From assembly GCA_000934665.2 (NCBI GenBank), contig JYFJ02003774.1, positions 1 through 38,513 of the forward strand: a DNA stretch of 38,513 nt, given 5' to 3'. The stretch is from Catajapyx aquilonaris. Lineage: Eukaryota. Both the position numbers and the translations under genes were made by a program. Shown here in pieces: positions 21,980 to 22,134 of this stretch. A model generated the notes under the pieces. It saw nothing but the letters and a program-made list of their open reading frames with translations. It did not search any database and had not been told where the DNA came from. Position 1 is the first letter of the stretch. Each line of letters opens with the position of its first letter.

Positions 21980-22134
21980 GCACGGATTGACCAAACGCGT
22001 TTTTAATGCATGTTTTGTCTGTCTGCATGCAGGGATTCGGTTTTGTAACATTCGCAAATAGTGGTGATGCCGACCGAGCACGAGAGAAGCTACACGGCAC
22101 CGTGGTTGAGGGAAGAAAAATAGAGGTGTGCATG
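21980..22134 (+). promoter_or_regulatory. Cluster of RBFOX binding motifs over the splice signals of the 93-nt exon
   Basis: TGCATG at 22007-22012, 22024-22029 and 22129-22134; secondary GCACG motifs at 21980-21984 and 22078-22082. Confidence 0.85.
22033..22125 (+). CDS. Rbfox1: RBFOX RRM 93-nt cassette exon (RNP1-containing), phase 0-0
   Basis: Acceptor ...gtctgcatgcag ends at 22032; donor gtgtgcatg at 22126. Encodes [31 protein letters not shown] (31 aa). Not in the ORF track. Confidence 0.97.

Follow-up and report, generated by a model that had tools for sequence, protein, structure and literature searches.

Does an arthropod RBFOX gene carry, inside the splice signals of its own RNA-binding exon, the sites through which its product could limit its own activity? 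This question is raised by a 93-nt exon, called here exon C, of a partial RBFOX gene encoded on the plus strand of a 38.5-kb stretch of DNA (38,513 nucleotides; all of it was analysed and it is called the window in the following), along which exons A, B, C, D and G as well as alternative exons could be placed (Table 1). A sequence-only reading of the window had noticed the RBFOX motif TGCATG at all three splice signals of this exon and had proposed that the negative-feedback circuit established for vertebrate RBFOX proteins is intact here, with an antiquity reaching back to the level of bilaterians. The evidence set out below indicates that exon C is probably the RRM cassette exon through which an arthropod RBFOX (Fox-1/A2bp1) gene regulates itself.

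The identity of the gene and the affinity of the DNA were supported by protein similarity. Exons A to D together encode the single RRM with near-invariant sequence that characterizes the RBFOX/Fox-1 family, and the best matches of exon A in a protein search were named RNA binding protein fox-1 homologs. Over its whole length, exon A showed 58.6% identity to the RBFOX of Periplaneta and Schistocerca (tblastn); in the full-length protein matches, identity was 54–56% for ticks, about 59% for Periplaneta and 57% for Cryptotermes. All the named matches covering most of exon A came from arthropods, the two fish proteins present in the top six matches covering only the conserved 39% of the exon that corresponds to the start of the RRM. 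Exon D was 100% identical to Periplaneta over 18 residues. The exons of the window were closest to those of polyneopteran insects, and the full-length matches of exon A together with the identity of exon D support the earlier assignment of this DNA to an apparent arthropod.

Exon C lies between exon B (...NERGSK) and exon D (VNNATARV...), with both junctions in phase 0, and its borders read ...tttttaaTGCATGttttgtctgtcTGCATGcag/GGATTC...ATAGAG/gtgTGCATGtc (here and below, a slash marks an exon border). Its translation matched profile positions 40–70 of the 70 positions of Pfam RRM_1 (E = 6.3e-8) and, therefore, contributes the RNP1 sequence GFGFVTF along with the C-terminal half of the domain. 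Coordinates, translation and profile match all bear out the initial description of a 93-nt, phase 0-0 exon holding most of RNP1. A 101-aa open reading frame running antisense to exon C on the minus strand (21837–22142) matched no Pfam family, and Rfam gave no match at the exon C site, its only matches being two tRNA-like sequences elsewhere in the window.

Table 1. Exons and candidate regulatory elements of the RBFOX gene, with positions in the window; numbers in brackets are relative to the borders of exon C.
Feature	Position	Strand	Details
Exon A	5398–5607	+	210 nt, phase 0-0, QTEPE..., RNP2 and RRM start, donor GGG/gtgagt
Exon B	19144–19197	+	54 nt, acceptor 18/18 pyrimidines, donor AAG/gtaagt; 5' partner of predicted skip junction
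GCACG upstream of exon C	21980–21984 (−53)	+	secondary Rbfox motif
TGCATG beside branch-point-like TTAAT	22007–22012 (−26 to −21); block 22003–22012	+	TTAAT directly 5' of motif
Acceptor and interrupted pyrimidine tract, ttttgtctgtcTGCATGcag	22013–22032	+	pyrimidines 12/18
TGCATG inside acceptor	22024–22029 (−9 to −4)	+	AG at 22031–22032
Exon C, cassette	22033–22125	+	93 nt, 31 aa, phase 0-0
GCACG within exon C	22078–22082	+	inside codons for RARE
Donor of exon C, GTGTGCATG	22126–22134	+	TGCATG at 22129–22134 (+4 to +9)
Exon D	29147–29201	+	55 nt, VNNATARVQTKKPPTVPN(G), donor G/gtaagt; 3' partner of predicted skip junction
Alternative microexon VFLTRNGTVPTL	31302–31337	+	36 nt, borders read by eye
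Alternative exon GCRLPQVPWSW...	about 32771–32872		56% identity to Periplaneta isoform segment
Exon G, AAALRGVAIQRGRARAYP...LHGYTP	34001–34147	+	downstream of RRM exons

When the sequence was read again, the TGCATG coordinates given by the sequence-only reading proved exact, and its two GCACG lie at the positions listed in Table 1. GCACG is a secondary Rbfox motif (Peyda 2025, PMC11874969); GTTGCACG was found at a similar distance in a group of related metagenome loci (the L001 group, described below) and was absent from another locus, L009. The splice sites of exon C are weaker than those of the neighbouring exons. Its donor, GAG/gtgtgc, matches CAG/GTAAGT at 5 of 9 positions, as compared with 6/9, 8/9 and 7/9 for exons A, B and D, and it is indeed the 'weak donor' of the first description, the weakest among the four exons scored. 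Its pyrimidine tract holds 12 pyrimidines in 18 positions; the values for exons A, B and D are 15/18, 18/18 and 12/18. Besides the motifs themselves, GU-rich runs adjoin the GCAUG cores at 22126–22134 and 22007–22029 (GUGUGCAUG; UGCAUGUUUUGUCUGUCUGCAUG), with a GUGUG run next to GCAUG at the exon C donor. These arthropod runs resemble the mammalian Rbfox/LASR modules, in which GCAUG is combined with GU-rich hnRNP M motifs (Peyda 2025, PMC11874969).

How unusual the cluster is depends on the scale considered. Window-wide, the TGCATG cluster at exon C is only mildly unusual: the window contains 41 TGCATG (27 on the plus strand and 14 on the minus strand), shuffled sequences contained 30.3 on average (sd 6.0), with 6 of 100 reaching 41, and a triple within 128 nt arose somewhere in 35 of 1000 Markov-1 resamples of the whole window. 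Exon C is the sole place in the 38.5-kb window with at least three TGCATG within 150 nt. For the ~30 start positions offered by the exon C splice signals, the Poisson probability of at least three TGCATG is 1.5e-6, and no (T)GCATG was found within 100 nt of exons A, B and D or of the 36-nt microexon (taken with borders 1 nt off). As a separate observation on the window as a whole, the excess of TGCATG on the gene strand (27 against 14 on the other, with a Markov-1 mean of 16.7 per strand) suggests that the introns of this gene are on the whole enriched in RBFOX sites, comparably to those of Drosophila Rbfox1, for which 35 intronic motifs are given in the available passages of Nikonova et al. 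(bioRxiv 2021.05.09.443278).

To look at these elements in other genomes, we scanned metagenome contigs with an open reading frame around exon C, which yielded 22 loci (L001–L022). Four of them (L001, L002, L004 and L007) were identical, four more (L003, L005, L006 and L008) were ~96–97% identical to these, and all eight were counted as one version; three others (L015, L016 and L020) were spliced cDNAs with exon C included and were left out of the flank counts. This gave 13 distinct genomic versions: the window, L001 (standing for L001–L008), L009–L014, L017–L019, L021 and L022. Taxa were inferred from the exon peptides. The exon C peptide of L001 is that of Periplaneta, Cryptotermes and Schistocerca and the peptide of L009 is that of mayflies; L012, L018, L021 and L022 are not among the loci placed in this way.

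The donor motif was found in nearly all these versions. TGCATG occurs at +4 or +2 in 11 of the 12 readable donors (eight GTGTGCATG and three GTGCATG), a count that may be biased by the loci found with patterns including flank residues; in the unbiased subset, found with the in-exon pattern EKLHGTVV, 8 of 9 donors had the motif, as did 5 of 10 acceptors. The exceptions are L022, which has no TGCATG at its donor, and L017, whose sequence ends after GT. At the other end of the exon, 8 of the 13 acceptors end in (T)GCATGCAG, five of these in TGCATGCAG. The acceptor of L018 reads ACATGCAG, and the motif is absent from the acceptors of L014, L019, L021 and L022, the last of these having no motif on either side. 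The surroundings of the motifs are far from fixed: at donor positions beyond +9 the majority base was found in 4–8 of 12 versions, and upstream of the acceptor motifs in about half of the sequences. In the alignment of the window with L001 and L009, TTAATGCATGT, CTGCATGCAG and GTGTGCATG stand out as invariant islands, despite an 11-nt insertion in L009, and the remaining intron is unalignable among the three. The motif region of the window is identical to that of its relatives across 37 nt upstream, and other intron sequence has diverged.

Lack of conservation in related species had been named at the outset, alongside absence of skipping, as an outcome that would speak against the proposal; the opposite was found for the motif, kept in 11 of 12 donors as well as in 8 of 13 acceptors, and on this pattern the cis-elements at exon C are under selection. 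Versions without motifs on one or both sides may have lost the switch and offer natural controls. Two of them, L022 and L014, have very short introns.

We then looked for transcripts in which exon B would be spliced directly to exon D. Metatranscriptome contigs from one RNA run (X1, share 0.06) included an exact unspliced contig over 22011–22127, a second unspliced contig over 22098–22277 and one contig in which exon C runs into the exon encoding VNNATARVQ, that is, an inclusion form. This last contig and the window disagree at 5 of 26 letters, every change being synonymous, and the contig probably comes from an allele, a paralogue or a relative. The 19197 to 29147 joint was absent among the X1 contigs, which leave exon B uncovered and cannot show absence of skipping.

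The skipped form was seen among annotated proteins. Of the 120 protein matches listed for exon A, 21 go straight from NERGSK to VNNATARV, a further 61 contain exon C, and the other 38 are fragments. When the junction region of a skipped Periplaneta isoform was used as query, 115 skipped forms appeared among the 120 best matches (113 recognized by pattern, plus P0207 and P0212). They belong to nine insect orders (Hymenoptera, Coleoptera, Lepidoptera, Diptera, Hemiptera, Thysanoptera, Orthoptera, Blattodea and Phasmatodea) and, outside insects, to ticks, spiders, a scorpion and Limulus. In terms of the Pfam profile, a skipped form (P0063) keeps RRM_1 positions 2–37 and a full form (P0073) positions 2–69; the skipped arthropod isoform loses positions 38–70. 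These isoforms are database gene models, and in that sense an isoform predicted to lack exon C is widely annotated across arthropods. Together with the conserved cis-elements, the annotated skipped isoforms favour, in part, the proposal that the negative-feedback circuit is intact: its sites are conserved and its predicted product is annotated in arthropods.

The mechanism that we consider probable for exon C would work as follows. Rising nuclear RBFOX would bind its own pre-mRNA at the exon C sites and, once bound, would compete sterically with SF1/U2 at the branch point, with U2AF at the pyrimidine tract and AG, and with U1 (then U6) at the donor. The result would be a direct splice from exon B to exon D, and the in-frame product would keep the N- and C-terminal parts of the protein and match only RRM_1 positions 2–37. 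By analogy with mammals, such a product would have no RNA binding and may be dominant negative, the predicted outcome being a negative feedback loop that limits RBFOX activity. Least certain in this mechanism is the sign of the donor site. A downstream UGCAUG usually activates exon inclusion, and we infer the repressive sign of the +4 site from the overlap of the motif with the U1 site.

The donor site might act in the other direction, with the upstream sites repressing and the donor-proximal site activating the exon, which would make exon C a tissue-tuned exon or would even let RBFOX feed back positively at certain levels. In chicken, activation of the 93-nt Rbfox3 exon was predicted from three downstream UGCAUG, and a developmental switch leads from the skipped to the full Rbfox3 form (Kim 2013, PMC3575530). 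The donor site is, moreover, the most widely kept of the three (11/12 readable donors), and its persistence in L014, L019 and L021, whose acceptors lack the motif, fits a separate role. However, a motif at +2 or +4 overlaps the U1-pairing positions, and over-expression of Fox-2 or Rbfox3 results, according to the published passages available, in net skipping of the mammalian exon, which does have one downstream site. We consider such an opposite action of the donor site unlikely. It is also conceivable that the conserved blocks serve a role unrelated to RBFOX, either by forming a hairpin of the near-palindromic UGCAUGU and GCAUGCA that hides the pyrimidine tract, or by binding some other GCAUG- or GU-binding factor, the weak splice sites being retained solely so that alternative splicing can occur. 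In the minimum free energy fold the two upstream motifs do pair, as a stem of 7 bp whose loop holds the pyrimidine tract, and the GU-rich runs next to the motifs described above can be compared with the hnRNP M motifs abutting GCAUG (Peyda 2025). Nevertheless, this fold has −33.7 kcal/mol as against a shuffle mean of −40.1 (z = +1.72), and 191 of 200 shuffles were at least as stable; RNA structure as the main reason for conservation was rejected on the grounds that the region is no more stable than shuffles. Since the motifs never vary, there is no covariation available for the hairpin. In addition, L010, L011 and L017 have no second upstream motif for pairing, yet they keep GCATGCAG, and the motif is the exact RBFOX consensus within the RBFOX gene itself, all of which makes a role unrelated to RBFOX quite improbable.

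Finally, exon C could be constitutive in this organism, the motifs being inherited without current function. The single RNA run, with inclusion and unspliced RNA and no skipping, would be compatible with this, but its contigs, with exon B uncovered, do not have the power to show absence. The identity of the motifs to those of relatives over 37 nt upstream despite the diverged intron, and the annotation of skipped isoforms throughout arthropods, also argue against a relic, and we give very little credence to constitutive splicing.

If exon C is an autoregulatory cassette exon, as we think probable, its age becomes of interest. One of the metagenome loci, L013, is of vertebrate type: the peptide of its exon shows 100% identity to RBFOX proteins of named vertebrates (e.g., Lerista and Cervus RBFOX2), and further named vertebrate matches, from Mus, Homo and Petromyzon, showed 94–97% identity over a matched stretch that includes flank residues. 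L013 has TGCATG at about −38, TGCATGcag at its acceptor and gTGCATG at its donor. The presence of the same acceptor and donor motifs in a vertebrate-type locus supports a deep antiquity, in line with the bilaterian-level origin suggested by the sequence-only reading.

A survey of read-through gene models pointed in the same direction as a lead only: CMQ precedes the exon in 53 of 120 and 32 more begin at MQ, and VCM, or VH with V, G, D or E as the next residue, comes after it in 87 of 120, these counts not being frequencies, as the CMQ and VHV flanks of the query favour such matches. The cases include Cervus RBFOX2, the cyprinids Leuciscus and Sinocyclocheilus, a scorpion (Centruroides), a beetle (Oryctes), a planthopper (Nilaparvata) and a sand fly (Sergentomyia). 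Third codon positions are not fixed by such peptides, which are merely compatible with TGCATG. Read-through types without motifs (CLQ…VTH and …VPA) occur as well and, therefore, the feature is widespread, not universal.

Taken further, the three sites might constitute an ancestral bilaterian module, a tentative idea to which we lend slightly less than even confidence. RBFOX motifs would here be built into the splice signals themselves, with UGCAUG at the branch point, UGCAUGCAG at the acceptor and G(UG)UGCAUG at the donor, and would have held the same offsets, in arthropod as in vertebrate-type genes, from a time before protostomes and deuterostomes separated; they would act through direct occlusion of SF1, U2AF and U1 and not through the distance-dependent RBFOX map. 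If true, this would place the module among the oldest splicing autoregulatory switches with nucleotide-level positional conservation, and its core would be the site embedded in the donor, which is kept more widely than the other two.

Other parts of the gene and of the window showed several additional features. The 36-nt microexon is 100% identical to Periplaneta and Schistocerca isoforms and, judging from such identities, both this microexon and the alternative exon at 32771–32872 are deeply conserved. Exon G aligns at 70–76% identity with the stretch that follows the RRM in insect RBFOX and has no Pfam match by itself; the C-terminal end of Fox-1_C (...RFAPY) had no match in the window (tblastn). 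TGCATG is also present at −26 of the exon G acceptor (33975–33980) and within this exon (34130–34135), 13–18 nt before the donor, and the alternatively spliced region after the RRM may be RBFOX-regulated too. The two tRNA-like sequences are both on the plus strand in RBFOX introns, at 28299–28373 and 4186–4259. One of them is a tRNA-Leu(AAG) (Rfam, 55.3 bits) and the other an odd call with a 4-base anticodon loop (50.7 bits); for both, a gene, a pseudogene or a SINE head is conceivable. Within the intron that follows exon C, the region 22708–24744 is matched by an X1 contig (1578 nt, depth 60) in several pieces with many gaps and insertions, which gives it the look of a repeated or transposable element. 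The introns are rich in microsatellites: a long (GCCT/CCTA)n array occupies 31660–31882 in one of them, and two long AAT/ATT-type trinucleotide runs at ~16480–16640 and ~17440–17560 appear as poly-N, poly-I and poly-Y open reading frames.

The circuit that we propose for exon C has mammalian precedents. Three UGCAUG lie upstream of Fox-2 exon 6 and one lies downstream, and they are conserved in human, in mouse and in rat; over-expression of Fox-2 leads to skipping of this exon, and Fox-2 cross-links to its own pre-mRNA, a case of 'direct negative auto-regulation' in the available passages of Kuroyanagi 2009 (PMC2777236). In those passages, the repression of the vertebrate 93-nt exon through flanking UGCAUG, which the earlier reading had treated as established, holds in print, and the autoregulation of Fox-2 exon 6 via flanking UGCAUG was restated by Peyda 2025 (PMC11874969). 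Rbfox3 also drives the skipping of Rbfox2 exon 6 (Dredge & Jensen 2011, PMC3126832, in the part available), and the RRM exon of chicken Rbfox3, with 93 nt, 31 aa and RNP1, is highly conserved among paralogues (Kim 2013, PMC3575530). For Drosophila Rbfox1, the passages available state that its mRNA tends to go up on mild knock-down and propose, from a knock-down series, a loop of negative feedback (Nikonova et al., bioRxiv 2021.05.09.443278). It had been left open at first whether anything of this kind was reported for the lineage; the accessible text of Dredge & Jensen 2011 (PMC3126832) states that the Drosophila Fox homolog has an equivalent alternatively spliced exon and, therefore, the initial reading, supported in part, was correct in substance, though not new.

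The observation is confirmed, and exon C is, in this light, probably a well-conserved new case of a known autoregulatory mechanism. The literature searched contained no exon-level test or dissection of the RBFOX RRM exon in any arthropod, no report of RBFOX dependence or dominant-negative action in any arthropod, and no description of sites inside all three splice signals, the last within a search that did not include the primary papers Baraniak 2006 and Damianov & Black 2010. What may add a little to the field is that motifs embedded in the splice signals are conserved, nucleotide by nucleotide, between very distant lineages. No new question is opened, the circuit being established in mammals, its conservation proposed and the Drosophila exon noted. 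The interest of the locus is that a major regulator of splicing in neurons and muscle appears to have its self-limiting switch encoded within the splice signals of the exon for its own RRM. That diverse arthropod-type loci and one vertebrate-type locus share this layout supports an ancient origin of RBFOX dose control, and the ~130-nt region offers a compact, mutable test object for the direct blocking of U1, U2AF and SF1 by a splicing factor.

Among known systems, mammalian Fox-2/RBFOX2 exon 6 and its RBFOX1 and RBFOX3 equivalents are likewise RRM cassettes with UGCAUG on both sides, and in-frame skipping of RBFOX2 exon 6 gives rise to Rbfox(deltaRRM), which is inactive or dominant-negative (PMC11874969; PMC3126832, in the part available). 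Fox-2 exon 6 differs in having three upstream sites, whereas exon C of the window has two upstream and one downstream; in the literature searched, the causation of skipping by RBFOX is shown for mammals only. The arthropod orthologue is Drosophila Rbfox1 (A2bp1, CG32062), with its equivalent alternative RRM exon according to the passages available. Negative autoregulation of asd-1 in C. elegans was cited in the available text of Kuroyanagi 2009 (PMC2777236) as a family-wide conserved feature, on the basis of an unpublished observation whose mechanism is not given there. Calcitonin/CGRP exon 4, regulated by Fox-1/Fox-2, is unlike exon C in that, in the passages available, its second element is exonic and acts on U2AF65 via enhancers and no donor-embedded site is described. 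Its other UGCAUG, at −34 and just upstream of the branch point, blocks SF1 binding there and E' complex formation (PMC2777236, in the same passages), and this provides a tested mechanism for a branch-point-adjacent site like that at −26 of exon C.
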